Assembly: GCA_963727625.1 (NCBI GenBank)
Contig: CAVSHR010000012.1
Span: forward strand, 32,001 to 96,000
Length of the DNA: 64,000 nucleotides
Source of the DNA: an uncultured delta proteobacterium
Lineage (GTDB): Bacteria > Desulfobacterota > Binatia > UBA9968
Direction: 5' to 3'
The position numbers and the translations under genes were made by a program. Below, piece after piece: positions 5,274 through 49,400 of this stretch. Numbering within the stretch: the first letter of the stretch is position 1; every line of letters starts with the position of its first letter. The notes under the pieces are model-generated. The model did no database searches and was not told the origin of the DNA. It saw only the letters and a program-made list of their open reading frames with translations.

Positions 5274-6224
5274 ATGCTTTTCTTAAAAAACACGCCCATC
5301 AACCGAATCCTATCGATCCAGGAGATGATCGAGGCGATCGAGGATACCCTCAAGGAAGTTGCTCTGGGCCGCGGATTTGAGTTGCCGCGGCGCAGAATCC
5401 ATCATCCCAACCGAATGATTTTCGGTCTCTTACCCGGTTCAGTCCATGGCGTCATGGGAGCCTATCTGCAAACCGATCTCGACCGGCAACTGCACCATGA
5501 AACCGTCATCCTCTACAGCGTAGAGACCGGAGAACCTTTGATTTTGTTTCAAGACTGCTCGATCAACGAATATCGAACCGGCGCCGCTGGTGCACTCGGC
5601 GCAAAGCATCTAGCCCGCCCGAACGCGAACCGGGTCGCGGTCCTTGGCAGCGCGATTCATGCGCAAACTCAACTTGCGGCCGTTGCTGCCGTCAGAGATT
5701 TAACGGAGGTCGAGATCTATAGCCCCACGCTTGCGCATCGGCTCGAATTCGCGGCGAAAATGAGCGGCGCGCTGGAGATCGCCGTGGTTCCGGTATCGAC
5801 GGCTCAAGAAGCCGTCGATGGCGCCGATATTGTTATTGTCGCCACCGACGCAAGGACGCCGGTCATCGACGGCGACTGGCTCAAACCGGGAACTCACGTG
5901 ACCTCGATTGCCAACGGCGACAAGACGCGCACCAGACAAGAAATCGACGAAGAAACGATTCAGCGCGCCGATCCGATCTTCGTCACCTCCAAGGAAACCC
6001 TGTGCGTCAATGAGAGCGATATTTTTCGCGCGGTGCGCGACAAACTGATCTCCTGGGAACGGGTGCATGAGATATCCAGATTGCTGCTTGGCGAAGCAGC
6101 CGGTCGGACAAACGATAAACAGATTACGCTATTCAAGCTCCAGGGGACGGGTATCATGGATGTAGCCGTCGGCCGCCGCGCCTATGAAAAACTCAAGGAC
6201 AGCGATCTGGCGCAGCGCATCTGA
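5274..6224 (+). CDS. Ornithine cyclodeaminase / mu-crystallin family protein
   Basis: RTGAAGALG, ADIVIVAT, WLKPGTHV, GRTNDKQITLFK, GTGIMDVAV; start uncertain (5211-5274). Confidence 0.85.
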   Translation: MLFLKNTPINRILSIQEMIEAIEDTLKEVALGRGFELPRRRIHHPNRMIFGLLPGSVHGVMGAYLQTDLDRQLHHETVILYSVETGEPLILFQDCSINEYRTGAAGALGAKHLARPNANRVAVLGSAIHAQTQLAAVAAVRDLTEVEIYSPTLAHRLEFAAKMSGALEIAVVPVSTAQEAVDGADIVIVATDARTPVIDGDWLKPGTHVTSIANGDKTRTRQEIDEETIQRADPIFVTSKETLCVNESDIFRAVRDKLISWERVHEISRLLLGEAAGRTNDKQITLFKLQGTGIMDVAVGRRAYEKLKDSDLAQRI

Positions 6225-6251
6225 CGGCTCTTACGCAATCAGGAGCAGTGC

Positions 6252-7667
6252 ATGGCCCACTATGACATGTTAGTGATCGGTTCCGGTCCCGCCGGCCAAA
6301 AGGCGGCGATTCAAGCCGCCAAGGTCGGCAAGAAAGTCGGCATCATCGAGCGCAAGAAAGTCGCCGGCGGCATTTGCATCAACATCGGCACCATCCCCAG
6401 CAAATCGCTGCGCGAAGCGGTCATGTTTCTATCCGGATTTCGCCAGCGCAACCTCTACGGCGCGAGTTACCGGGTGAAGAAAGACATCACTTTCGAAGAT
6501 CTGGCCCAGCGTTGCGATCACGTGGTCAAAGCCGAGCAAGAAATCATCCAGAATCAATTGATCAGAAACTCCGTCGAATTCATCATCGGCACCGCCTCCC
6601 TGCTCGATCCGCACCGCATCCTCATCAACCAGGAAAACGAATCCAACGAGCATACCGCCGATTATATCGTGATCGCGGTGGGCACCGAGCCCGCGCGCCC
6701 GGCGAACATTCCCTTCGATGGCGAAACCATTATCGACAGCGACGGCCTGCTTTCGCTCAAACGGCTACCGAGATCCTTGACTATCGTCGGCGGGGGCGTC
6801 ATCGGTTGCGAATATGCGTCGATCCTGGCTACTCTGGGAATTCCAGTGGTGCTGGTCGAGCGACGGCCCCGGCTGCTCGAGTTCGTCGACAGCGAGATCA
6901 TCGAAGCCTTGCAATACCAAATGCGCAACATCGGCGTCACCCTGCGCTTCAACGAAGAGGTGGTCGGCATCGAGAAATCTGCCGAAGGCTCGGTGGCGAT
7001 TCATTTGAAGAGCGGCAAAAAGATCAGCGCTCCGCTACTGGTTTACTCCATCGGCCGGGTTGGCGCGACGAAAAACTTGAACCTGGAGAGCGTCGACATT
7101 CCAACCGACTCGCGGGGCAGGATCAAAGTGAACGGGAATTTTCAGACCCCAGCCCCACATATTTACGCCGTTGGCGACGTCATCGGATTTCCGGCGCTCG
7201 CCTCGACTTCTATGCAGCAAGGACGTCACGCCGCCTGCCACGCCTTCGGCCTGAGCTGCGATACTTTCAGCCATCTGCTACCCTACGGCATCTATACGAT
7301 TCCGGAAATTTCCATGGTCGGCCGCAACGAAGACGAACTGACGCGCGACGGCATCCCCTACGAAATCGGCGTCGCGCGTTACCGCGAGATCGCCCGAGGC
7401 CAACTGATCGGCGATACCGTGGGCATGCTCAAACTCCTCTTTCACTCCGAGACCCGAGAACTGCTCGGCGTCCACGTGATCGGCGAAGGAGCCACCGAAT
7501 TGATACACATAGGCCAGGCCGTGATCGCCCACGGCGGCAAGCTCGATTACTTTGTCGACACGGTGTTTAATTACCCGACGCTGGCGGAGTGTTACAAGGT
7601 GGCGGCGCTTGCGGCGCTGAACAAATTCCCGCTCGACGGCGCCGCGTGCAATCTTGCGCCGCACTGA
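6252..7667 (+). CDS. sthA: Soluble pyridine nucleotide transhydrogenase (SthA/UdhA)
   Basis: IGSGPAG, GGICINIGTIPSK (single-Cys form), GIYTIPEIS, FNYPTLAECYKVAA; AGGAG RBS. Confidence 0.92.
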   Translation: MAHYDMLVIGSGPAGQKAAIQAAKVGKKVGIIERKKVAGGICINIGTIPSKSLREAVMFLSGFRQRNLYGASYRVKKDITFEDLAQRCDHVVKAEQEIIQNQLIRNSVEFIIGTASLLDPHRILINQENESNEHTADYIVIAVGTEPARPANIPFDGETIIDSDGLLSLKRLPRSLTIVGGGVIGCEYASILATLGIPVVLVERRPRLLEFVDSEIIEALQYQMRNIGVTLRFNEEVVGIEKSAEGSVAIHLKSGKKISAPLLVYSIGRVGATKNLNLESVDIPTDSRGRIKVNGNFQTPAPHIYAVGDVIGFPALASTSMQQGRHAACHAFGLSCDTFSHLLPYGIYTIPEISMVGRNEDELTRDGIPYEIGVARYREIARGQLIGDTVGMLKLLFHSETRELLGVHVIGEGATELIHIGQAVIAHGGKLDYFVDTVFNYPTLAECYKVAALAALNKFPLDGAACNLAPH

Positions 7668-28618: not shown

Positions 28619-30474
28619 GTGGAAACATCGCATTCGACGCGGCCCCGGAACGTGGACTGGAAACGAGCGGCTGCCCTTCTTTACGGAGATTGGGGAACGA
28701 GCAAGGCCTATGTTCCCGGTCTGGCTTTCTCCTTGGCGCTCTATGGCTCTTTTTGGTTTGTGCTTGCCGTCAGCGCATTGACTGCTTTGGTCGGCATCAA
28801 CTATATCTGGATTTGCAAATATTTTCCCGAAGGCGGCGGCGTCTACTCATCCGCCAAGGCCCACTCGCGCAATCTCGCCCTCCTCGGCGGATTTCTGCTC
28901 GTGGCCGATTACATCGTTACGGCGTCGCTCAGTTGCTATGATGCGTTCCTCTACTTGGGTTTTAGCTTCGAAGACGCCAAACGCTGGTCGATTCTTGCCA
29001 TATTTATCATTGGAACCATTAACTTCTTCGGGCCGAGGCAATCCGGCGGCATAGCGGTAGTCCTGGGAATCGTAACGGTCGCGGTTCTAGGATTACTCGC
29101 ATTGGCGAGCATCCCCCACATTCCAACGGCCATCGCTCATCTGGAAGCGCCCCATCGCGATCCGATTCACTGGTGGACTTCCTTCGTCGGCGTCATTCTC
29201 GCGCTTTCTGGAGTCGAGGCCATTGCCAATACCACGGGACTGATGCAACTCGACCCAGGCTCGACTCCTGCCAAGCCAAAAGTCGCCATCACCTCGCGCA
29301 AAGCGATCATCCCCGTGATGTTCGAGGTCTGTTTGTTTACAGCCCTTTTCGGCCTGGTCATGAACGCGATTCCCGCCATGCAGGCCAACGACCACGTGGG
29401 AGACATGCTTCGTTTCCTGGGACAGAAATTTGTCGACGAGCCCCTGCAAAACTTCCCCGGCCTGGCTTGGATCGGGACAGCCAGACTTTTCTCTTCCATC
29501 GTAGGCCTCGTCATCGCCCTGCTCTTGCTGAGCGCGGTCAATACGGCGATCGTCGATCTCGTCAGCGTGCTCTATCTCATGTCAAAAGACGGAGAAATGC
29601 CTCAGCCTTTTTCCGTTTTGAATAAATTTGGAGTGCCCTGGATACTGCTGTTGATCGCCATGTTGGCGCCCATCCTGGTAATCGATATCCAGAGCGGCGA
29701 GAATGCTTTACACGGGCTAGCGGAAATGTATGCGATCGGCGTGGTCGGCGCGATCACCGTCAATCTCGGTTCTTCCGCGTTTAACCGGAACCTCCCCATG
29801 CTGGGTCATGAGCGAATAGTGATGAGAGGAAGTTTTTTCATCCTCGCCGCCGTCGAAATCAGCATTGCCGTCACCAAACCTCCCGCTCTGCTTTTTGCCG
29901 CGACCGTGGTCGGCGTGGGGTTTGCCGCGCGGGCGATGCATAAAGGAATCGTCGTTCCGCCTCGGTTCCAGGACTCGATCGAACGCTACCTTCCCAAAAT
30001 TGCGGCGAGTCGTCAGGCGAAAAATATCGCGGAGATGGAGCGAGCCAGGATCATGGCCCAAGTCGGCTCGCAACACCCGGTGAAGGCGGTCATGGTGGCC
30101 GCCCGCGAAATTGTCGGCACTTTGCAGTTTGCCGTAGACGAAGCCCGTCTCCATAACGCGAAATTATATGTGCTCTTTGTCCGTTCCGTTTTCACACGGA
30201 TCCCAGTGGGACATAGGGCCGAGACCGATCCCGAGGCGTTAGCAGTTTTTGGTGCCCTTAGATCAATTGCAGACGGGATCGAATTAATTCCGATCATGCC
30301 GTGAGCGATGATCCCGGATGGACGATCCTCGATCATGCCGCTATGAACGGAGTGGACATGCTGATCCTGGGTCATTCCCGGCGATACGCGGTCACCCGAC
30401 TGCTGCGGGGCAATGTGATTCAGCAGGTGGCGGCCAATCTTCCAGAAGAGATACGGCTTGTGATTGTCGGATAG
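28619..30474 (+). pseudogene. APC-superfamily transporter with Kup-like motif and C-terminal USP domain; -1 frameshift near 30297
   Basis: LLYGDWGTSKAY, ALSGVEAIAN, LLSAVNTA, MYAIGVVG; after ATC-AT-GCC the other frame gives AVSDDPGWTILDHAA..GVDMLILG..LLRGNVI..LPEEIRLVIVG-TAG. Confidence 0.8.
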
Positions 30475-32883: not shown

Positions 32884-33447
32884 CTATTTTTCCGCCTGCT
32901 TATCCCGCACCGCCTGAATGTCTTCCAGGCAACTTGCGCACATATAGGCCGCGTGGGGCAGGAAGATCAACTCATCGGTCTCGCGCGGCTCCATGCAGAT
33001 GCCGCAGAGGCGATTCTCTTTGGCTTTCGCTTTGGCTTTCGCCGATTTGGCTTCGGACTCTTCGCCGCTTTCGGTATCCTCGGCTATGATATTCTTGCAA
33101 AGCTCGACGCACTCGTCACAAATATGCACCGACGGGCCGGCGACGAGCTTGCGCACTTCGGTTTGATGCTTGCCGCAGAACGAGCAAGCAACATGCTTGG
33201 CCTCGTCGTCAAACTTCGGTACGTGGGCGTCCCAATCATCGCCGAGTGCTTTCTTGAGCGTTTCTTCCAGCGCCGTGCCGATTTGCTGCAACTGCCGGGC
33301 GATTTCGCCGCGCTTGGGCGCGCTCTTGGAGTCGAGAAACCTGGCGGCCGCCTGTTGAAACAACCTCAAAGCCGCGCCGTACCTTTGGTCGTTAACCAAA
33401 TCAGCGCATTCGACGAAACCAAATTTGGACGGCTTAGTTGCCATCAA
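32884..33447 (-). CDS. Protein with ClpX C4 zinc finger and a second Cys4 finger
   Basis: [26 protein letters not shown]; CGICME..YMCASC; no AAA domain. Confidence 0.8.
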
Positions 33448-33898
33448 ACTCCCCCCTTTCGTTCTACGCCACCGCTTCCGGATCGGCGACGAACTCGATC
33501 AGCAGATACTGACTGTACACGACCCCAAAGTTAAAGATATACCGGCCGCCATAGATGACGATCGGTCCGCTGCTTTAATCGCGTTCGCGTGGGCGAAGCC
33601 GGCGCGCGTCTGCGCGGCAAAAAGCTCGGGTTAAATCTTCTCAAAACAGGCGCGGTGGTACGGCGGCCGGGCGGGACTCAGCGGCGTCGCTCCGGCTGGC
33701 ATTTCCTCGCCCTGACCAAATGAGGACGATATCGTCGCGGCGCGACACCAAAAGCGCTCGATCTTGTGCGCCTCAAGATCACGGCGGTTGGCCATCAGCG
33801 TGAAAATCGCCGCGCTGGCAGGGACTAGCGAGCAAATCAAGATCGCGGGAATGCTCCAGGCGCACAATTCGGCGAATCTGTGCAGCGACAGCATCCGA

Positions 33899-34645
33899 TC
33901 AAAGCATTACCGTGCCGCAGTTGATATTGTAGGCTTGACCGGTAATGTAAGCCGCGGCGTCGCTGGCGAGGAACAGGATCGGCCCGGCGATATCTTCGGG
34001 TTGGAGCACATGGCCGAGCGGCGTGGCGCGCAAGCGCGCCATCACCTCGTCTTCCGATCGGTGGCGGCGCGGCATGTTGGTATTCGCCGAGCCGGGGCAA
34101 ATGGCGTTGACCGTGATGCCGTCGGGGCCGAGCTCGCGCGCCAGCGCTTTGACAAAACCGATAATGCCGGCTTTGGACGCCGCATAGTCGGCAAACTCGC
34201 GCGCGCCGGTGTGGGCGATGGACGATGCGATACTGATGATGCGGCCGCTCTTCTGTCGGCGCATCGCCGGGACGAAGCCCCGTGCGCAAAGAAAGTTACC
34301 GCCTAAATTGACGTTCATCGTGCGATCCCAATCTTCCTCGCTCTTGCTCACCACCGGCGCCTTGAGATAGGTGCCGGCATCGTTGACCAGAATATCGACG
34401 CGGCCGAAGCGCTCGAATGTCCGATCCGCGAGCCGCTGCACCGACGTTTCGCTGGCGACGTTGGTTTCCACCGCGATCGCTTCGGCGCCGAGATTCTGAA
34501 CCTCCGTTGCGACGCCATGGGCCTTGTCCGCTTGTAAATCCGCCACCACGACCTTCGCGCCTTCGCGACCCATGCCGAGGGCGATGGCGCGGCCGATGCC
34601 TTGAGCACCACCGGTGATCACCGCAACTTTGTTCTGTAAGCGCAT
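33899..34645 (-). CDS. SDR family oxidoreductase (FabG-like)
   Basis: TGGAQGIG, LVNDAG, YAASK, NAICPG; real start ATG 34645. Confidence 0.9.
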   Translation of the reverse strand: MRLQNKVAVITGGAQGIGRAIALGMGREGAKVVVADLQADKAHGVATEVQNLGAEAIAVETNVASETSVQRLADRTFERFGRVDILVNDAGTYLKAPVVSKSEEDWDRTMNVNLGGNFLCARGFVPAMRRQKSGRIISIASSIAHTGAREFADYAASKAGIIGFVKALARELGPDGITVNAICPGSANTNMPRRHRSEDEVMARLRATPLGHVLQPEDIAGPILFLASDAAAYITGQAYNINCGTVML

Positions 34646-34647
34646 GG

Positions 34648-35385
34648 CTAGACCAGCCCTCCGTTGCAATGAAATAGCTGGCCGGTGATCGCCTCGCTCT
34701 CTGCTGTGGTGAGAAAATAATACAACTCGGCGAGATCCTCCGGCGTCGCGGTCCGTCCGAGCGGAATCGCCGCATGCCAGCGCTGTTTGCGCGCCTCGGG
34801 AGTTTCCTTTTCCATGACCCGCGGCGTGTCGGTCGGTCCGGGCGCCACGGTGTTGACCCGGATCCTGTCCGGCGCCAGCTCCAGCGCCAAACTCTTGGTG
34901 AAGGCGATGATGCCGGCTTTGGCGGCCGAATAGGGAACGCGCAGTGCCGAACCGGTGACGCCGTAATTCGAAGCCGTGTTGAGAATCCGCCCGGCCTTCT
35001 GCCGTTGCATATGCGGTGCCACCTCGCGGCACATGAGAAAAGTGCCCTTCAAGTTGGTGTCGATGACCTTGCGCCATTCTGCCCATGTGAAATCCTCGAT
35101 GCGCTTGGTGAAAAAACTGCCGCCGGCGAGGTTGACCAAAACATCGATGCGGCCGAAACGCTGCGCCACGTCGGTGACCACCGCTGTCACTTCTCGCGCG
35201 ACCGTGACATCGACTGAAAGCGCCTCAGCCTTGCCGCCGGCATCGGCAATCTCGCCGCGCACCTGCTCCGCCGCGGCGTGATCATAATCGGCCACCACCA
35301 CGTTCATCCCCGCCGCCGCCAGGCGCTGCGCAACCGCCCTGCCAATGCCGTTGCCACCGCCGCTGATCAGTGCAACTGAATTCAC
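34648..35385 (-). CDS. SDR family oxidoreductase
   Basis: SGGGNGIG, LVNLAG, YSAAK, NTVAPG. Confidence 0.9.
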   Translation of the reverse strand: MNSVALISGGGNGIGRAVAQRLAAAGMNVVVADYDHAAAEQVRGEIADAGGKAEALSVDVTVAREVTAVVTDVAQRFGRIDVLVNLAGGSFFTKRIEDFTWAEWRKVIDTNLKGTFLMCREVAPHMQRQKAGRILNTASNYGVTGSALRVPYSAAKAGIIAFTKSLALELAPDRIRVNTVAPGPTDTPRVMEKETPEARKQRWHAAIPLGRTATPEDLAELYYFLTTAESEAITGQLFHCNGGLV

Positions 35386-37175
35386 GACTGTTCCCCTCCT
35401 CCGTCCGCAGAATAAATTGTGTCGATCTGACTACGATAAAGCGCGGCGACGAGCTGGCGGTCGATCTTGATTTTTTGAAAGACATTGACACTGCGCACCG
35501 CCGCGGGAAAATCCGCGGGCATGAGCGCGATCTTGCGAATTTTCTCGTAGTGCTCGAGACGCTCGTTGATGGCGTCGATTTGGCGCCACAGCAAGGTTTC
35601 GATTTCGCTGTCGGACAACCCGGCCTCGTCGCACTGGAGCGCTGCGGCGATGGCCCGTCGGTCAGGCACGATCAACGCGGCGAGGAACGGCCGGCGGTCG
35701 CCGAGCAATACCGCTTGGCGTATGCAGGGTTCATCTTCCAATTGCAGCTCGATAAAGCCCGGGTAGATATTCGATCCTTCGGAGCAATAGAAAACATCCT
35801 TCTTTCGGCCGATGATGCGCAGGGAACCGTCCGGATCGAGCGCGCCGAGATCGCCGGTGTGAAACCAACCCTCGGCGTCGAACACTTCCCGGGTCGCCTC
35901 GGGATCGTGAAAATAGCCGGGCGAAACCGTCGGGCCGCGCACGAGGATTTCGGCATCGGCGGCGATGCACACTTCGACGTTGGGAAAAGGCTTGCCGAGA
36001 CTGCCGGGGCGATTCTCGCCGATGCCGCAGAGGGTTACGCCGCCGCATTCGGTCGAGCCGTAGGAGCCGATCAAGGGGATGCCGGCTATTTCGAAGAAGC
36101 GCATGATCCGCGGCGGCATCGCGGCGCCGCTGTAGGAGATATATTTGATCCGCCCGCCGAGCGACGCGCGCACCGATTCTTTCAGGGTGCCGCGGTGGGA
36201 TTCGAATTGCCCGCTTTCGCTTTGGCTGAGCCCTTGCTTGTTATTTTTTACATCGAGCGCTTCGATGTCGCGCCAAAACCGGCGGTTCTGCCCGCGGTCG
36301 AGGATGCCGTTCCAGATCCGTTCCATGACCCGCGGCACCAGAGCCATCGCGGTGCCGGCCAAAGCTTCGACGACATCGAGATCGAGCTCCAGCTCGGTGG
36401 CCTCGATGAGCGCGGTGCTCCGGCCGATCACCGCGCTCTTGAGAAAACCGAAGCGGCCGAGCAGATGATTGAGACTGAGCACGACGAGAAATAATTCCTC
36501 CGGCCTGGCGACCGCGATCTCCCCCCCGTTAGTGATGTTGGAAAGCAGATTGTCCTGCGTTCGCATGACGCCCTTGGGCTCGCCGGTCGAGCCTGAAGTA
36601 TACATGATCGTCGCCAAATCGTTAGGCTGGACCGAACCGAGAATCTCGCCGAGACGATGCGAATCGACCGCCTTGCCCCGTTCAACCAGTTGGTTAAACG
36701 ACAGCGTGCCGGGCAATTCCGCGTCGGGCTGGTGCATCACGAATATCTGCGCCAATGCCGGCAACTGGCCTTGCAAATTCATCAAGCGCCGCACCGCCGC
36801 GGCGTCCTGCACGAACGCGGCCCGGCAACGCGAGTGAGTGAGCACCTTGAATAGCAGGCCATCAGACATGGACGGCGAGACCACCACGTTGGGCAAGCCG
36901 CCCGCCAGGGTCGCCAGATCAGCGCACAACCAGGGCAAGCTGTTTTCGCCGATGATCGCGACTGCGTCGCCGGGAGCGAGGCGAAGGTCGTATAGCGCCA
37001 GCAAAAGGCTTTGCGTCAGCGCGCCGAATTCGCGCCAGGAGACGGTCTCGAAACGATCCCTTTTTTGCAACTTGACGCAGAGGCGATCGCCAAGCTCATT
37101 AACCCTCTGGAAGAAAATCCGGCCGATATGCCGGCTCGGCGGTGCTGAGTAGTTCTGCGCGGTTGGTGAATTCAT
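35382..37175 (-). CDS. AMP-dependent long-chain acyl-CoA synthetase-like ligase
   Basis: YTSGSTGEPKG, YGSTE, WFHTGDLG, GRKKD. Confidence 0.88.
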   Translation of the reverse strand: MNSPTAQNYSAPPSRHIGRIFFQRVNELGDRLCVKLQKRDRFETVSWREFGALTQSLLLALYDLRLAPGDAVAIIGENSLPWLCADLATLAGGLPNVVVSPSMSDGLLFKVLTHSRCRAAFVQDAAAVRRLMNLQGQLPALAQIFVMHQPDAELPGTLSFNQLVERGKAVDSHRLGEILGSVQPNDLATIMYTSGSTGEPKGVMRTQDNLLSNITNGGEIAVARPEELFLVVLSLNHLLGRFGFLKSAVIGRSTALIEATELELDLDVVEALAGTAMALVPRVMERIWNGILDRGQNRRFWRDIEALDVKNNKQGLSQSESGQFESHRGTLKESVRASLGGRIKYISYSGAAMPPRIMRFFEIAGIPLIGSYGSTECGGVTLCGIGENRPGSLGKPFPNVEVCIAADAEILVRGPTVSPGYFHDPEATREVFDAEGWFHTGDLGALDPDGSLRIIGRKKDVFYCSEGSNIYPGFIELQLEDEPCIRQAVLLGDRRPFLAALIVPDRRAIAAALQCDEAGLSDSEIETLLWRQIDAINERLEHYEKIRKIALMPADFPAAVRSVNVFQKIKIDRQLVAALYRSQIDTIYSADGGGEQS

Positions 37176-38545
37176 AGCGGTGTGAAATGCGCCGGGTCAT
37201 ATTTGCCGCGGCTCGGCTCTTCGATCCGTCTAAGGCCTTTGATACCGGTTCGGTTGGCGTGGGCGTAGAGCAGCGCCTCCGCCACATCGTTAAGGTGGCC
37301 ACATAAGTACTTGCGCGCCGGTACGGCGAGACGCAACAGCTCTATGCCTCGCGCACTCTGGCTTGGCGCCGGCGGCGCTCCCTTGGTCAAACGAACCCCG
37401 GCTATTCGATAGACAAACGCCGCCAATGCTTCAGCCGGAAAGTTTTCCGGACCGAGATGCGGCAGAAACTCTTTCACGTCGATAAACACGCCATGTCCGC
37501 CCGCCGGATGCACCAGGGGCACGCTGCCGTTCAACCGGCGCCAGAGGTAACCCACCTGCCCGACCCGATGGGCGATGTACGACTCGGCCGAGAAAATATC
37601 TTCGAGCGCAGCAGTCAAGAGCTCCATCGCGCCACCCGATAACTGCGCGCCGTCGAGAAAACACTGCATGGCGGCTTTTCGATAGCGGGCTTCATCCCGG
37701 GTCATGATCAAACCGCCAGACGAGACCAATAAGTCTTTGAGCGCACTCATGGTGCAGCCATCGGCCTGCGCGCAGGTCTCCTCGACGATTTCGCGAATCG
37801 CGCGGTTTTGATATCCGGCTTCTCGCTCTCTGATGAGAAAACTGTTCTCAAGAATGCGGCAGGCGTCGAGAAAAACCGGAATTCTACAAGCCGCGGCGAT
37901 GGCTCGGACCGCTTTGAGGTTGGCCAAAGATACCGGCTGACCGCCGCAGGCATTGACGCCGAGCTCGATGTAAATGCAGCTGACCTTGCCGGCGCCATGT
38001 TCGGCGATAACGGCGCGCAATTTTTTCAGATCGAGATTACCCTTGAAAGGCTCTTCCGACGTGAGATCATGAGCCGCGCCGCCGATCACGTCGACGACGC
38101 CGGCACCGTTCATTTCGATATGGCTTCGAGTCGACGGAAACAGCATGTTGCCGGCCACCACGCCGCCGGGTTTCACATTGAGCTTTGCCCAGATGCGCTC
38201 CGCCGCCCGGCCTTGGGTGATCGGAATCACGAAGGGAAAACCGAAAATTCCTTTCACCGCGCCGGCCAGCCGAGCCAACGCGCTGCTGCCTTCGGCCGCC
38301 AAGCCCATGCCGGGTTCGACGAACTTTGCGCCCGTCAAAACCGTGAGTTGGTTGGTGCTAAGCGAACTGACACCACTGTCGGTACTGAGATCGACGTAAA
38401 TCAACTCCTGGGGGATCAGCTCAGTATTGTAATAAGCGGCGCCGAGCGCCGCTTGGCGCTCGGCCAAGGTCGTTTGGCGCAGCGGACGCACCGCAGCGAT
38501 TTCGTAGGGCACGGAGAAAGTTACGCTGAGCGAATTGCTTCCCAT
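37172..38545 (-). CDS. Divergent tryptophanase / tyrosine phenol-lyase-like PLP enzyme (beta-eliminating lyase family)
   Basis: DLSTDSG, QGRAAE, FKGNLD, GGQPVSLAN, DACRILEN, MSALKD, GGHGVFID, RLAVP; likely start ATG 38545 (GGAG RBS). Confidence 0.85.
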   Translation of the reverse strand: MGSNSLSVTFSVPYEIAAVRPLRQTTLAERQAALGAAYYNTELIPQELIYVDLSTDSGVSSLSTNQLTVLTGAKFVEPGMGLAAEGSSALARLAGAVKGIFGFPFVIPITQGRAAERIWAKLNVKPGGVVAGNMLFPSTRSHIEMNGAGVVDVIGGAAHDLTSEEPFKGNLDLKKLRAVIAEHGAGKVSCIYIELGVNACGGQPVSLANLKAVRAIAAACRIPVFLDACRILENSFLIREREAGYQNRAIREIVEETCAQADGCTMSALKDLLVSSGGLIMTRDEARYRKAAMQCFLDGAQLSGGAMELLTAALEDIFSAESYIAHRVGQVGYLWRRLNGSVPLVHPAGGHGVFIDVKEFLPHLGPENFPAEALAAFVYRIAGVRLTKGAPPAPSQSARGIELLRLAVPARKYLCGHLNDVAEALLYAHANRTGIKGLRRIEEPSRGKYDPAHFTPL

Positions 38546-38622
38546 TTCTTTGCACTCCCGGATCGGATCAACGTCTGCATTAGCATGAAATGAGAACAAC
38601 CAAAATAACAACCGGTTGTGGC

Positions 38623-39435
38623 TTAGGAATTCCCCTGCGCCGCCGGCGGCTGGCGCTGCCCTTGGCGCGCCCGCAGTAGCGACATGGCACGGTGCACCAT
38701 CTTCCGTTCGGTGGCAAACTTGAGCAGCTCGATCGCCTCCTCGATGGGGAACCAGCGCGCGTCGTCGGCCTCGTGATCATGATCGCGTACGTCACCTTTG
38801 AGATAACGCAAAAGAAAAAAGTGCACCCGCTTATTGATTCGCACTGCGTTATCGCCCTTGGTTTTGTCCCGATAGGAATAACGAATCTCGCCCAATTTCC
38901 GAATCAGCTTGCCTTCCAGGCCGGTCTCTTCGCGCACCTCGCGCATCGCCGCCTGTTCATCCCGCTCGCCCTCCTCAACATGGCCTTTGGGCAGCCCCCA
39001 ACGATGGCGCACGTAAATCAGGGCGATTTCATAGTCGTCGGCGTTACGCCGGTAGATCACGCCGCCGGCCGAGACTTCGCTGACCGTACGGATATTGTCG
39101 TCCTTCGCAGCAGTATTGTTGGGTACTTGAGCGCGTAGCCAGCCCAGATAACCGGCGCTGCCGGCGATAACCGGCAGTGCGATAATCTCAGGAACCGAAT
39201 AGCTATGCAGCGCCCGGATGCGCTTCTCCAACGCGGGGAACACCTCTTTGCGGGTTTTGATGATTAGTAACTCCTCGTCGTTCTGCTCCACCTGGCCCTG
39301 CCATCGATACACCGATCGTACCGATTGGATGCGGTTGACGCAGGCGGCGAGCTTTTCCCCGACCAGCGTCTGGGCCAGATGCTCCGCCTCTTCGGCCGAT
39401 CCGGCAGTCACGTAAACGACGATTAATTCATTCAT
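38623..39435 (-). CDS. CutA - NUDIX hydrolase fusion
   Basis: LAACVN, SVYRWQG, HSYSVPEII (CutA) then PKGHVEEGERDEQAAMREVREETG (Nudix box) in one ORF. Confidence 0.85.
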   Translation of the reverse strand: MNELIVVYVTAGSAEEAEHLAQTLVGEKLAACVNRIQSVRSVYRWQGQVEQNDEELLIIKTRKEVFPALEKRIRALHSYSVPEIIALPVIAGSAGYLGWLRAQVPNNTAAKDDNIRTVSEVSAGGVIYRRNADDYEIALIYVRHRWGLPKGHVEEGERDEQAAMREVREETGLEGKLIRKLGEIRYSYRDKTKGDNAVRINKRVHFFLLRYLKGDVRDHDHEADDARWFPIEEAIELLKFATERKMVHRAMSLLRARQGQRQPPAAQGNS

Positions 39436-44740: not shown

Positions 44741-46324
44741 TCAATGCTGCTGCGTATGGCCGCGTCCATGCTCGGTGTGGCGGAAGATCAGCGACTTGAT
44801 CACCACCGGCACCGCTTTGGCATCGGGCAACTCCTGGCCGATATCGATAAAATCAAAGTCTTTCAAATCGATCCCGTCAATGGAAATAATCCCGGCGCCG
44901 GGTATCAGCTCGCGTTCGATGATGTTGCCCATCAGCTTGGCGATATCGGCGTCAAAGACCAGCACCAGCGGCTGACCGTTGTCGATATGCTCCTTCATCG
45001 CTTCGACCAGACCCTCGGCGAGCGTGCGAATCAATGGATAGGAGGGGCCAAGCTCCCAACGAATCGCGAGCGCCACGGTACGCTCGACATCGTCGGCGTC
45101 GAAGCGCTGCAGCGCCCGCTCCACCGCGGCTTTGATTTCCGCTGCGGTGATCGATTCGGTCTGTTCGATTTGCGGTGTCACCACCTGCAAATTGCGCAGC
45201 GGCAACAAATCAGGGTGAGATAGGTAAATCGTATTGCCGCTCACCTGAACGGTATATTGCGACGCGCCGATGACGGTGGCGCGGATGCGAACGTCGGCCG
45301 GACGTAGCGGGATATTGCCGCCACCGAGCTGATTGACCCTGGCCCTAACCTTTTTGCCCAGTTGAATACCCAGATCGCCCAGATTGCGTTTCTCGTAGCC
45401 GTAGACAAACTCCGATACGCCGCCGGAAAACATGACCGCGTGAATCGGATCGGAAAATTCGAGATTCGGCGTGAGCAGGAGATTCTCCACTTCGGTCGTG
45501 AGCTTACCCCGCTCAAGGACCTGAAACAGCGAATCGCACAGCACCTGGGAAAACTTGTCTTTCTCAACGTCGCTGATAGTGCCGCCCAAGGCGAGATTTT
45601 CAATGCCCGCCATCTTGGCGATTTTGAGCGCGGTGTCCTCGAGCCGGTTGATTTTGCCGCGCTCGTCCATGGCGATGAGCCGCGCGCCCAATTCCACCGC
45701 GCAGGTGTCGATCACCCGGCCGCCCTGGACGATGGCAATCTTGCAGGTGCCGCCGCCGATATCGACGTTCATCACGGTGAAATCGCCGCCCTCGTGGTAG
45801 GTCATGTGCACGGCACCCGAGCCGTAAGCAGCCAGGATCGCTTCGAGGTTATGGCCCGCCGTAGCGCAGACGAATTTCCCCGCCTCAGCTGAGAAAAGCG
45901 CAGCGATCGCTTCGGCATTTTTCTTTTTTGCCGCCTCGCCCGTGACGATGATCGCCCCGGTATCGATGTCCTCCGGCGTCAGATTTGCCTTCTGATACGC
46001 TTCATGGATGAAATCACCGAGCTTGTTGGTGTCGATGGTGGTCTTGTCGACGTATGGAGTCAAGAGAATCGGCGATTCATAAATAATTTCACGATTGATC
46101 ACGACAAAGCGGCTCGACAGGGCGACCCCCTGGCGGCGCAGCGTCAAACGGGAAAAGATCAAGTGTGATGTGGATGAGCCGATATCGATGCCGACCGAAT
46201 TGAGCGTAATCCGCTCGGAACGCCACATCGGATGGTTTTCATCCATGGCAGCTTCATCATCTTCATCAAAGTCGTCGTCATGTCCCTCATGGAGGCGCAA
46301 AGCCTCCGTTTGCAAATTGTCCAT
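44741..46324 (-). CDS. EutA-family (ethanolamine ammonia-lyase reactivase-like) ASKHA ATPase
   Basis: SVGIDIGSSTSHLIFS, GAIIVTGEAA, FVCATAG, NVDIGGGT, IRATVIGA, VPVVIKSLIF; likely start ATG 46324. Confidence 0.85.
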   Translation of the reverse strand: MDNLQTEALRLHEGHDDDFDEDDEAAMDENHPMWRSERITLNSVGIDIGSSTSHLIFSRLTLRRQGVALSSRFVVINREIIYESPILLTPYVDKTTIDTNKLGDFIHEAYQKANLTPEDIDTGAIIVTGEAAKKKNAEAIAALFSAEAGKFVCATAGHNLEAILAAYGSGAVHMTYHEGGDFTVMNVDIGGGTCKIAIVQGGRVIDTCAVELGARLIAMDERGKINRLEDTALKIAKMAGIENLALGGTISDVEKDKFSQVLCDSLFQVLERGKLTTEVENLLLTPNLEFSDPIHAVMFSGGVSEFVYGYEKRNLGDLGIQLGKKVRARVNQLGGGNIPLRPADVRIRATVIGASQYTVQVSGNTIYLSHPDLLPLRNLQVVTPQIEQTESITAAEIKAAVERALQRFDADDVERTVALAIRWELGPSYPLIRTLAEGLVEAMKEHIDNGQPLVLVFDADIAKLMGNIIERELIPGAGIISIDGIDLKDFDFIDIGQELPDAKAVPVVIKSLIFRHTEHGRGHTQQH

Positions 46325-46468
46325 GCTCGCAGTGAATTCCTTTCTTCCTGGCGCTTGTGTATCGAATTTGCATAGCATAAGAGTTTCGCTCTTGCCACCG
46401 GCGAAACCCGCCGCGGCGGGATGGACAAGGTGCTTTTTCGGCGATAAGATGCCGGCAATTCGAAGACT

Positions 46469-49400
46469 ATGGGACAAGAGGAATATCAAGAGCTGTCCTC
46501 GTTCCTGAAGCGCTTCATCCGGCGCCTCAAACTTCTCCAAGGTCTCGAGGGACTTTGCCTGACGGCGATCTGCGCCCTGCTCTTGCTCGCTCTCGGTCCG
46601 GGCGTCTTCGAGCTAAAAAACCTCTTTCCTTACGCGCCCCTGGCCTACAGCTTCGTCACCGCTGTCGTGCTCGCAGCAGTGGTCAGCTGGTCGCTTTTCC
46701 GATTATTGCGCCGACTTTCGCAGGAGCGCGCGGCGTTTTACATCGAGCAAAAGCAGCCCAAGTTACGCAATAATCTGATCAACTCGCTGCAGCTCTACCC
46801 GCAGGTTAGCGAAGCGAAAAACGCCCCGGGTTTCTCCGCGTCGATGGTGCTGGCGCTGTTGCGCACGACGCGCCATCAGGTGGCGACGCTCAAAATGGAT
46901 CAGCTCATCGACAGCCAGAGGCTCAAGGCTGGCTTGCGCTTGTTCGTATTATTATTGATGCCCGTAACGGCGATGCTGTTATTCAATCCGGCTTGGGTGG
47001 GGGGAACGATCAGCATGTTGACCCGTCCCCTCGATCACCTACCGCCAAGTCAAACGACCATCGCGATCGAGCCCCGGGGACTTCGCGTCGTGCGCGGCGC
47101 GCCGGTGACCATTCAAGCCGCCACCTCCGGCGCTATCCCCGAGTCGTTGGAATTGGTCACCTGGACCGGAATCAACGAACACGGTGAAGTTATCGGCGCG
47201 GAAAAAATTCCCATGGAAAAACTCGGCGGGGGCAAATTCACCGCCAAAATCGCGCGCCTGGAAAAATCCTTGCGCTACCGCGCTGTCACCGGCGCTTTTA
47301 CATCGGCCACCTATGCCGCCGAAGCGGTCGATGCGCCGGAGATCGCCAACGTCCGGTTGATCCTGTATCCGCCGGCCTATACCGCCTTGGGATCGGTGTC
47401 GGTACCGGAAGGCAGCGTCGAAGGGCTCAGGGGCTCGACTCTGCACCTCAACGCAGTCACGACCCAAGACGTGGTGAAGGCCGAGATCGTCATGGACGAC
47501 GGCAAAAAAATCCCGCTCAAAATCGCCGGGCGTAAACTGCAAGCTAACTTGGTGCTGTTTCAATCCCAGTCCTACCGAATCTTGGTGGAAGATGCCCATG
47601 GCTTTCGCAACTCGCCGATCACCTACGAGCTGAGGGTCAAACCCGACGGTTTTCCCACCGTCGAGCTGTTGCAACCGACCGCCGACTTAGAGGTCAACGG
47701 TGACGAAATCTTAGCGCTGGAATACGGCGCGCGCGACGATTTCGGCATCGCCGAGGTCGCTTTGGTCGTCAAGGTCGGCGACCGAGAGGACAAAATCAGC
47801 CTGCAGAAAGGCGACGGCAAACGGCTTATCGTGCGCGATCAGTACAAATGGGATCTCGGCCGGCTGGCCTTGCGCGACGGCGAGGAAGCGATCTTTTTTC
47901 TGCAGGTTTATGACAATGACACGATCTCCGGGCCGAAGATCGGCATATCCAACTCGGTGCGCCTGAAGCTCAAGAATCTCAAGGGCGAGCATCAACAACT
48001 GGCCGAGATGGTCAACGACTTGAACCGCCGCATGGTTGATCTGTTGGCCGACCATCTGGAAACGCCTGTGCCGGGTGAAAAACCGCTCACCGCGGCGCAG
48101 GCAATGGAGAAAAAGTTCGAGCAAAATCTTGCGGAGGCGCTCAAGCGCACTGAAGAGGTCATGGCTCGCACCGAGAAGGATCGCATGTCCGATTTTGCCA
48201 CCTGGACTGATCTCCAAGCGCTGAAGCGCAATTTGGAATTCACCAAGGACGAGCTGTTGCGCAAACAGGAGCGGGCGGAGACCAACAACGACAAACTCAA
48301 AGCCCGCGACGACATCGCCGCGGAACTGGAGCGCATGTCGCTTTTGTCCGAAGATATCGGCAAACGGATGAAGGCCCAAGAGCTCGCTTCGACGGCCCAA
48401 GATCTGGCGCGCACCCAAGAGCGCTTGATGGACGCTTTGGACAAGCTTCAGACCGGCGACAAGAACCTCGACGCGATCATGAAGCAGATCGCCGAGATGT
48501 CGAAAACCCTCGACGCGCTGCAACGGGCAGCGTCGCAGCTCGCCCAACAGATGCCCGACGATTTCATGAACCCCGAAGCGATGCAGGGGCTGGGCTTCAA
48601 CGACATGCAGCGCGCCCTCGACGAAATCCGCAAGAAGCTCCAAGCCGGCGACATCGAAGGCGCGCGCCAGCTGGCCAGGGAGTTATTCAACCAGATGGCG
48701 CAGATGGTCGCCGCGCTGCAGAACGCCCAGCGTTCGGCGATGGCCTCGGGCATGGGCCGCATGCAGGGCGAGATGCAGCGCCAGAGCAACGAGCTGCAGG
48801 AGATCGCGCGCGAGCAGCAAGAGATCCTGGTCAAGACCGAAGGAGTCAAGAATTCCGCCTTGAGCGAGCGTGACGCCGCGCTCAAAAACAGGCTTGAGCG
48901 CTTTCTTGAGAAAGCAGTGGCGGAGCTGGGCCAGTTGACCGAGCAGTTTCCCGACCGCGAAGGGCCTGACGATCCCAGCCTGCTGGCGAATATGGACGAT
49001 GCGACGATGAATTCGCTGCTTAAGAACCTCATCGCCAAGCTGAGCAATAAAGATTTCCCCGGTTTCAAAGAAGGTGAAGGTTTCACCCGCAAAGAATTGG
49101 CCAAGAAACGCAGCGCCGCTCAGGAGCCGCGCGCTCAGCGCGCCGAAAAGAGCCTCGATAGCATCAAGGCCAATCTCGAATCGCTGCTGGGCGAACCGGT
49201 CCGGGCGCTGAACGACGCCGAAAAGCGCGAGCTGCGTGATCTGGCGCACCGCCAGGACGTTCTGAGGGAGCGTACCAACGAGCTCCATGAAAAGCTCGAA
49301 TCGCTGTTTCAGCTGTTTCCCCAGCTTGATCCGAAAATCGTTCAAAACATCGGCGAAGCGGGCAAGTCCATGGGCAGCGCGCATAATCGCCTCGGCCAGC

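Follow-up and report, generated by a model that had tools for sequence, protein, structure and literature searches.

A 64,000-nucleotide (nt) stretch of DNA from an uncultured delta proteobacterium of the Binatia lineage UBA9968 (contig CAVSHR010000012.1, positions 32,001 to 96,000; the window, throughout) carries a minus-strand string of four closely packed genes. These encode a pyridoxal 5′-phosphate (PLP) dependent Beta_elim_lyase-family enzyme (37172-38545, 457 aa), a long-chain acyl-CoA-synthetase-type adenylate-forming ligase (35382-37175, 597 aa) and two classical short-chain dehydrogenases, SDR1 (34648-35385, 245 aa) and SDR2 (33899-34645, 248 aa). Comparison of this locus with its relatives demonstrates that the PLP enzyme and the ligase form a lineage-restricted module that is inherited and lost together and that is fused into single proteins in other lineages. 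The operon is a composite of two modules, the second being the SDR pair, which is an older resident of the site. By its sequence the PLP enzyme belongs to the family of tyrosine phenol-lyase (TPL) and tryptophanase (TnaA) but is neither of these enzymes.

The family placement of the PLP enzyme is clear at the broad level and does not extend to the equivalog level. The protein matches Pfam PF01212 (Beta_elim_lyase) with 146.8 bits against a cut-off of 27 (E 1.1e-42) and passes the NCBIfam subfamily model NF009709, named 'tryptophanase' (378.7 versus a cut-off of 285), but it falls far below the TPL equivalog TIGR02618 (361.5 bits versus 720.7) and the tryptophanase equivalogs TIGR02617 (296.9 versus 825.8) and NF053783 (291.7 versus 750). 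The best solved relative is TPL itself (1c7g, 3.3e-92), with approximately 40% identity over the full length, and the ESM Atlas matches fall in generic TPL/tryptophanase clusters only.

To compare the active sites we used TPL numbering counted along the 1tpl chain in the alignment, which reproduces the literature positions Lys257, Asn185, Asp214 and Arg404. The PLP lysine K257 is kept as K270 in the window enzyme, along with D214 (D227), R217 (R230), N185 (N198), Q98 (Q111), R100 (R113), S254 (S267), F123 (F136) and R404 (R405); among 23 orthologs K270, D227, R230, N198, R113 and S267 are invariant. In TPL this kept set, D214 and K257 included, comprises the residues that bind the cofactor and the α-carboxylate. 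Other positions have changed: Y71 is A84, E69 is L82, K256 is L269 and M288 is A300, next to a 4-residue deletion, and none of the phenol-pocket residues Thr124, Arg381, Phe448 and Phe449 is kept, their places being taken by P137, K388, Y449 and D450. For M288, M379 and R381 the MAFFT columns conflict with the HMMER alignment, and the HMMER placement adopted here is less certain. The canonical GDEAYAG loop that holds Glu69 and Tyr71 is replaced by EPGMGLAAEG in a loop 7-8 residues longer, and this replacement is conserved across the 23 orthologs. In a mixed MAFFT alignment, Glu69 and Tyr71 are present in 6/6 canonical rows and in 0/13 non-canonical rows. In TPL, Tyr71 acts as the general acid, Glu69 is a cation ligand and the pocket residues contact the aromatic leaving group.

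Together these features point to an enzyme with an intact cofactor site and an altered leaving-group site. With its cofactor- and α-carboxylate-binding residues intact, the window enzyme is predicted to form an external aldimine with a free L-amino acid. With Ala in place of Tyr71, Leu in place of Glu69 and altered or smaller residues in the pocket, it would be unable to protonate an aromatic leaving group, and we infer that it cannot break the C-C bond of Tyr or Trp. The pocket is probably larger, several substitutions having introduced smaller side chains. The enzyme shares with TPL (1c7g, 1tpl) and TnaA the fold family, the PLP lysine, the Asp that faces the pyridine nitrogen and the residues that bind the phosphate and the α-carboxylate. 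It differs from them in the missing GDEAYAG loop, in the changes at Lys256, Thr124, Phe448 and Phe449, in its scores below the equivalog cut-offs and in its partner, which is a ligase where TPL and TnaA have a permease or leader peptide.

Orthologs of the PLP enzyme were found only in one family-level lineage labeled Candidatus Binatia. They make up more than 120 clusters at 66-100% identity, named 'tyrosine phenol-lyase' or 'tryptophanase [Candidatus Binatia bacterium]' by JGI and NCBI. At 50% clustering the window clade collapses to one full-length representative (P0121, 62%), and the next relatives are P0131 at 47% and others at no more than 43%. Among 61 related genomes, PLP matches occur in 27/36 genomes of the window's family, one of them a 36% paralog and one a fragment, and in 0/24 genomes of the order's two other families; in a sample of 401 genomes from the phylum, matches above 40% were confined to the window's family. 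A quick tree placed the window enzyme with P0131, P0133, P0136, P0138 and P0139 in a 9-row clade that is separate from a 27-row canonical TPL/TnaA clade, each with a Shimodaira-Hasegawa-like approximate likelihood ratio test (SH-aLRT) value of 99. Scanning genome contigs with the PLP alignment returned, among the matches listed, at least 2 loci of the clade and at least 78 canonical TPL/TnaA loci (37-42% identity). A metagenome scan with P0131 gave 20 loci, 19 of which belong to the window clade (57-64% identity to the window PLP enzyme) while one is a 35% relative.

Within this lineage the PLP gene and the ligase gene travel together. We mapped the window genes onto 55 related loci, 41 of which carry a full PLP ortholog, 39 of these with at least 1 kb of downstream flank. 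In 37 of the 39 the next gene downstream of the PLP gene is that of the ligase, and the spacing between the two genes is -4 in 23/29 loci, +2 in 5 and -14 in 1. In this mapping the PLP or ligase hits came in 2-3 pieces at 5 loci, and the ligase was cut by a contig end at 3. Ligase orthologs (at least 57% identity) occur only beside a PLP gene, every other match being at 34% or less. The 37 family genomes divide into 25 with both genes, 8 with neither and 1 with the PLP gene only, the rest being remnants. Of these, 2 genomes have pieces of the ligase only, in one case a truncated gene and in the other a gene at a contig edge, and 1 genome has small bits of both genes.

The history of the site was traced with a tree of SDR1 plus SDR2 from 30 loci. 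Six rows that lack the PLP and ligase genes are scattered over this tree. They amount to 6 changes, and well-supported branches make at least 4 of these unavoidable; the deepest branches carry all four genes. Because the root is a midpoint only, we infer the direction of gene change rather than read it from the tree. The scatter of these loci, taken with the remnants of decay, suggests that the four-gene arrangement is ancestral and that joint loss of the PLP and ligase genes occurred several times. The remnants differ from locus to locus: L141 (genome G023) has a ligase truncated to residues 117-594 and no PLP gene, L057 (G007) has small remnants of both the PLP and the ligase genes, and at L034 (G018) the PLP gene is intact and the ligase is cleanly missing. 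At L055, L056 and L145 the PLP or ligase matches are in 2-3 pieces, for which frameshifts or assembly errors are possible explanations.

Outside the lineage the two activities appear in single chains. A profile-free search, from which the 150 best representatives were considered, contained three proteins in which a Beta_elim_lyase domain is followed by an AMP-binding domain, P0143 (1036 aa), P0255 (1026 aa) and P0235 (790 aa, truncated); AMP-binding_C_3 is also present in P0143 and P0255, the two full-length fusions. Their domain order is the order of the PLP and ligase genes in the window, and their PLP parts are without Glu69 and Tyr71. P0143 is 38% identical to the window PLP enzyme and 31% identical to the window ligase over residues 1-588; it has SAAKD as its PLP-lysine motif (SALKD in the window enzyme, SGKKD in TPL), a Pro at the Thr124 position and no Tyr71, and the best NCBIfam model of its ligase part is FadD11, as for the window ligase. 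Across the three fusions the PLP parts share 31-39% identity and the ligase parts 25-31% identity with the window proteins, and none of the three contains an SDR domain. Since P0143, P0255 and P0235 branch outside the window clade in the quick tree, the association of PLP enzyme and ligase extends beyond one lineage. A word-based search for longer forms retrieved 114 proteins, mostly tandem double-TPL proteins, and the fusions with the AMP-binding domain were not among them.

A second type of fusion joins a ThiF/E1-like domain to the N-terminal side of a Tyr71-less TPL-like domain (P0171, P0180, P0193, P0194 and P0228; also P0385, by precomputed Pfam). These proteins fall in another clade than the window enzyme, and one of them bears the name 'beta-eliminating lyase-related protein [Anaerolineae bacterium]'. 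Such a domain arrangement would fit thiocarboxylate chemistry. Also common are tandem proteins with two TPL-like units, approximately 870-930 aa long (P0123-P0129, P0281-P0377), with Myxococcota and 'Candidatus Eisenbacteria' among their named sources. In the rows examined, the tandem proteins retain the GDEAYAG loop in their N-terminal half, where the PLP lysine and further cofactor residues are often gone, and the C-terminal half keeps the cofactor residues and has lost Tyr71. Such a protein resembles a heterodimer within one chain, to whose site each half may contribute a part. Other TPL-like fusions involve nitroreductase (P0169), hemerythrin (P0175) and GmrSD_N (P0176) domains, and in P0151 (3002 aa) a TPL-like domain occurs with a guanylate-kinase-like domain.

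The ligase itself has the features of an apparently competent ANL adenylate-forming enzyme of the long-chain acyl-CoA synthetase type. It matches PF00501 (AMP-binding) with 194.4 bits (3.4e-57) and PF23562 (AMP-binding_C_3) with 48.6 bits (1.3e-12), and residues T193-G202, Y372-E376, G436-D442, G456-D460, K568 and K570 are invariant in 21 orthologs. These residues make up the P-loop-like TSGSTGxPKG, YGxTE, GWxxTGD, GRxKD and C-terminal Lys motifs. The best NCBIfam model is FadD11 (NF038343), and the ligase is not a FadD11 equivalog because its score is far under the cut-off (180.9 versus 950). It has its domain architecture and core ANL motifs in common with FadD11/ACSL synthetases and with the A domains of carboxylic acid reductases, from which it is set apart as a clade of its own that occurs only beside the PLP gene.

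Both remaining proteins are classical SDRs. SDR1 matches PF13561 (adh_short_C2) with 218.9 bits (9.3e-65) and PF00106 with 200.5 bits, and passes the FabG-like subfamily model NF009466 (230 versus 222); SDR2 matches PF13561 with 212.7 bits (7.5e-63) and passes subfamily model NF005559 (228.2 versus 215). Neither reaches the FabG equivalog TIGR01830 (215.6 for SDR1 and 219.6 for SDR2 versus 297.75), so that their placement is by broad subfamily models only. The two are approximately 40% identical to each other, and their translations show the motifs YSAAK and YAASK as well as GGGNGIG and GGAQGIG. In both proteins β-strand 2 ends in Asp (VVVADYD, VVVADLQ). As a rule an Asp at this place marks NAD dependence, which suggests a pair of NAD-linked dehydrogenases and not ketoreductases.

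The distribution of the SDR pair follows the site and not the PLP-ligase module. Upstream of the operon lies a CutA1-Nudix fusion gene (38623-39435, minus strand, 270 aa; PF03091 125.3 bits and PF00293 83.2 bits), co-directional with the PLP gene and 77 nt away from it, and across the related loci this gene is the conserved left neighbor of the site whether the PLP and ligase genes are present or not. In 7/7 syntenic sites without a PLP gene, two of which come from unpublished genomes, SDR1 directly follows CutA-Nudix. Conversely, both SDR genes are found in 23/28 PLP-bearing loci with at least 3.3 kb of downstream sequence and are absent from the other five (L051, L052, L145, L152 and L154), in two of which a glyoxalase-family or FMN-dependent dehydrogenase gene takes their place. 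No SDR1 ortholog was found anywhere in genomes G034, G032 and G351 (completeness 97, 82 and 100), which keep the PLP and ligase genes; the best SDR1 match there is at most 41% identical, versus at least 66% for orthologs. The two SDR genes accompany each other in every locus with enough flank, no more than 11 nt apart in 28/30 loci. The constant left neighbor of the SDR pair is the CutA1-Nudix gene and not the PLP gene, and the pair probably has a function independent of the PLP-ligase module. Where the SDR genes are present they are likely co-expressed with the PLP and ligase genes, because the overlap spacing is conserved.

These comparisons bear on the first-pass annotation of the locus, which had read the four genes as one candidate undescribed pathway, to be given up if the orthologs of the PLP enzyme were not linked to ligase and SDR genes elsewhere. 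The link to the ligase is borne out, both by gene order and by the fusions; membership of the SDRs is not, given the PLP-less sites that keep SDR1 and the genomes that keep the module without it. The Asp at the end of β-strand 2 also suggests NAD-dependent dehydrogenases in place of the ketoreductases of that annotation.

As to what the module does, our leading proposal, to which we give somewhat less than an even chance, is a β-lyase for a heteroatom-linked substituent that works with an adenylate-forming ligase. The PLP enzyme would take up a free L-amino acid as external aldimine and eliminate a larger β-substituent to yield pyruvate and ammonia; this substituent would be heteroatom-linked (C-S or C-O) because an aromatic leaving group could not be protonated. 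The ligase would then activate the carboxylic acid of that substituent as acyl-AMP or acyl-CoA, and the released acid would enter β-oxidation-type metabolism. The SDR pair, where present, may oxidize hydroxyls of the same or a related compound, and would not be required. We prefer this catabolic order, cleavage before activation, with moderate to low confidence, because of the type of the ligase, because the module is accessory and has been lost repeatedly, and because enzymes of this lyase family are in general catabolic.

Several observations weigh against this proposal or against the module from which it starts. An intact PLP gene stands without a ligase gene at 2 loci (L034 and L154). The adjacency counts are not independent of each other because all orthologous loci belong to one family with conserved synteny, and only the joint losses and the three rare fusion proteins count as independent support. 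Each of these three is a singleton cluster in which the fusion could be a missed stop, and in identity to the window ligase their ligase parts (25-31%) do not exceed generic paralogs (30-34%). Ligase and SDR1 genes overlap with a spacing of -4 in 18/20 loci, so that a functional tie to the SDRs may exist. The catabolic direction is a preference and not a result, and a route of release followed by activation needs no fusion. Finally, the roles given to the TPL residues are confirmed only in part by PMC3870968.

Four other readings deserve consideration. In the main alternative the ligase would act first; it could adenylate an acid whose acyl-adenylate or CoA ester is attacked by the thiol of L-cysteine, and the Tyr71-less lyase could then cut the C-beta-S bond of the resulting S-acyl-cysteine to release a thiocarboxylic acid, pyruvate and ammonia; the cysteine may already sit on PLP, shielding its amine from an S-to-N acyl shift. 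Background chemistry lends this some appeal, as ThiF-type enzymes form thiocarboxylates via acyl-adenylates, and TPL-like domains without Glu69 and Tyr71 are fused to two unrelated adenylating superfamilies, ANL and ThiF/E1-like. Physical fusion also fits a labile intermediate better, and passages of PMC12494993 report the same logic experimentally for YcfA-YcfC. We nevertheless consider such a sulfur-transfer module unlikely here: the clade of the ThiF fusions is not that of the window enzyme, YcfA and YcfC come from other protein families, the flank annotation has no sulfur-carrier, thioacid-using or cysteine-supply gene nearby, and the ligase resembles an ordinary CoA ligase with complete motifs. 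It is quite unlikely, too, that Tyr71-less TPL-family lyases and their adenylating partners make up an unrecognized cysteine-dependent sulfur-insertion class, which here would produce a fatty or other thioacid without a sulfur-carrier protein or persulfide relay. Alternatively, the enzyme might be an ordinary tyrosine phenol-lyase or tryptophanase that happens to lie beside unrelated fatty-acid genes, as the database names of its orthologs and its best solved relatives, TPL structures, would have it. With equivalog scores at half the cut-off or below, Tyr71, Glu69 and the aromatic-pocket residues replaced, a ligase ortholog found only beside the PLP gene, joint loss of the pair and fusion proteins in existence, we judge this very improbable.

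That all four genes serve one pathway, with the SDRs reducing or oxidizing an intermediate of the PLP enzyme and the ligase, would account for the tight packing, the 4-nt overlap of ligase and SDR1 at most loci, the joint presence of the SDRs at 23/28 PLP-bearing loci with enough flank and the four genes on the deepest branches of the SDR tree. We doubt it in view of SDR1 staying behind CutA-Nudix at 7/7 PLP-less sites, the absence of the SDRs from 5/28 PLP-bearing loci, the match of no more than 41% to SDR1 in G034, G032 and G351, where orthologs would reach at least 66%, and the fusion proteins, which do without an SDR domain. A biosynthetic module is a comparably doubtful option. Here a β-replacement or an aldol or Claisen-type reaction would couple an amino acid with an acyl group that the ligase provides, giving a lipo-amino acid or a non-proteinogenic amino acid. 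Acid activation combined with a PLP enzyme is a known biosynthetic logic, as in pimeloyl-CoA synthetase with BioF, TPL-family reactions are reversible, as in L-DOPA synthesis, and the substitutions in the window enzyme appear to widen the pocket. However, no TPL-fold member is known to carry out acyl condensation, the flank annotation has no carrier protein, exporter or tailoring genes nearby, the flanks are of a housekeeping kind, and the PLP-ligase pair has been lost repeatedly. A role in amino-lipid or non-proteinogenic amino-acid metabolism, as put forward in the first-pass annotation, is possible.

Two described systems come close to the lyase-ligase module without matching it. The TPL-like domain LnmJ of leinamycin biosynthesis reportedly acts as a cysteine C-S lyase. 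According to passages of PMC3870968, TPL-like domains embedded in polyketide synthases (PKS), the LnmJ domain included, are without the Tyr that protonates C-gamma, and in this they resemble the window enzyme; the structure of one such PKS or non-ribosomal peptide synthetase domain (PDB 9cen, 'polyketide synthase protein') is matched at E 1e-27. Those domains act on carrier-bound intermediates in megasynthases and are much more distant, whereas the window enzyme is free-standing and keeps the equivalent of the α-carboxylate-binding Arg404. In the YcfA-YcfC system of 6-thioguanine biosynthesis, as described in parts of PMC12494993, an adenylated substrate gains L-Cys as an S-adduct and a PLP-dependent C-S lyase leaves the sulfur behind. 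YcfA and YcfC are an AANH-like ATPase and a cysteine-desulfurase-like lyase that act on a guanine nucleotide, and the families of the window proteins are ANL and TPL instead, so the likeness is one of logic only.

The layout of the operon was read directly from the sequence, and the four minus-strand genes with their overlaps and gap are as first annotated and are translationally coupled. The PLP stop and ligase start share an ATGA (37172-37175), the ligase stop and SDR1 start share a GTGA (35382-35385), SDR1 having a GTG start, and a 2-nt gap (34647-34646) separates the SDR1 stop from the SDR2 start. The PLP gene starts with the ATG at 38545, with a Shine-Dalgarno-like GGGAG (38555-38559, minus strand) 9 nt before it. 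An in-frame TTG at 38611 was rejected as its start, the orthologs being 457 aa and matching the ATG, and a longer open reading frame (ORF) of 395 aa for SDR2 was set aside since it overlaps SDR1. No aromatic amino-acid permease or leader peptide was seen beside the PLP gene, which agrees with the earlier annotation, as does the atypical standing of the enzyme in the tnaA/tpl family, with scores under the equivalog cut-offs and its GDEAYAG loop replaced. An APC-type permease gene (28619-30304, plus strand) lies 3.6 kb beyond SDR2 and has no match in the 55 related loci compared.

CutA1 and Nudix form one ORF in the window and in the closest genomes, and are separate matches or ORFs in other genera of the family and on many metagenome contigs; at L051, positions 6161-6490 encode CutA1 alone. 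Downstream of SDR2, a gene for a 187-aa protein (32884-33447, minus strand) that has a C4 zinc finger of the ClpX type (PF06689, 73.9 bits) and no ATPase domain is kept in place in most related loci. An 87-aa ORF (33631-33894, minus strand) that separates this gene from SDR2 has no family match and is not conserved. The wider flanks are of a housekeeping type, with genes for 5-formyltetrahydrofolate cyclo-ligase, hisI, hisG, an oxaloacetate-decarboxylase-type carboxylase subunit, a tetratricopeptide repeat protein and an EutA-like protein. The EutA-like gene (44741-46540, minus strand) belongs to the ethanolamine utilization reactivase family, and no further eut genes were seen in the part examined. 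Promoter-like sites (3 versus 2.0 expected from shuffles) and terminator-like sites (9 versus 8.5 expected) are not above background. Base composition gives no clear sign of transfer, the GC content at third codon positions being 0.69-0.76 for the four genes versus 0.65-0.72 for most neighbors.

Both proteins of the module come from known superfamilies. In the literature searched, which did not cover supplements and subscription-only papers, a TPL-like/ligase pair was not found described, and within that scope the Tyr71-less clade and its ligase partner appear undescribed as well. As far as seen, the module is confined to one family, with rare fusions elsewhere. The locus shows that tight, overlapping operons can be composites; because the SDR pair was established at the site earlier, the pathway cannot simply be deduced from the string of four genes. 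For annotation, the consequence is that hundreds of database proteins are labeled 'tyrosine phenol-lyase' or 'tryptophanase' without the residue that defines this chemistry, and because that residue is missing, predictions of phenol or indole formation from such genomes would be wrong. For the lyase family, the fusions of related Tyr71-less domains with ThiF-type adenylating enzymes hint at a wider theme in which carboxylate adenylation is combined with PLP-dependent β-lyases.

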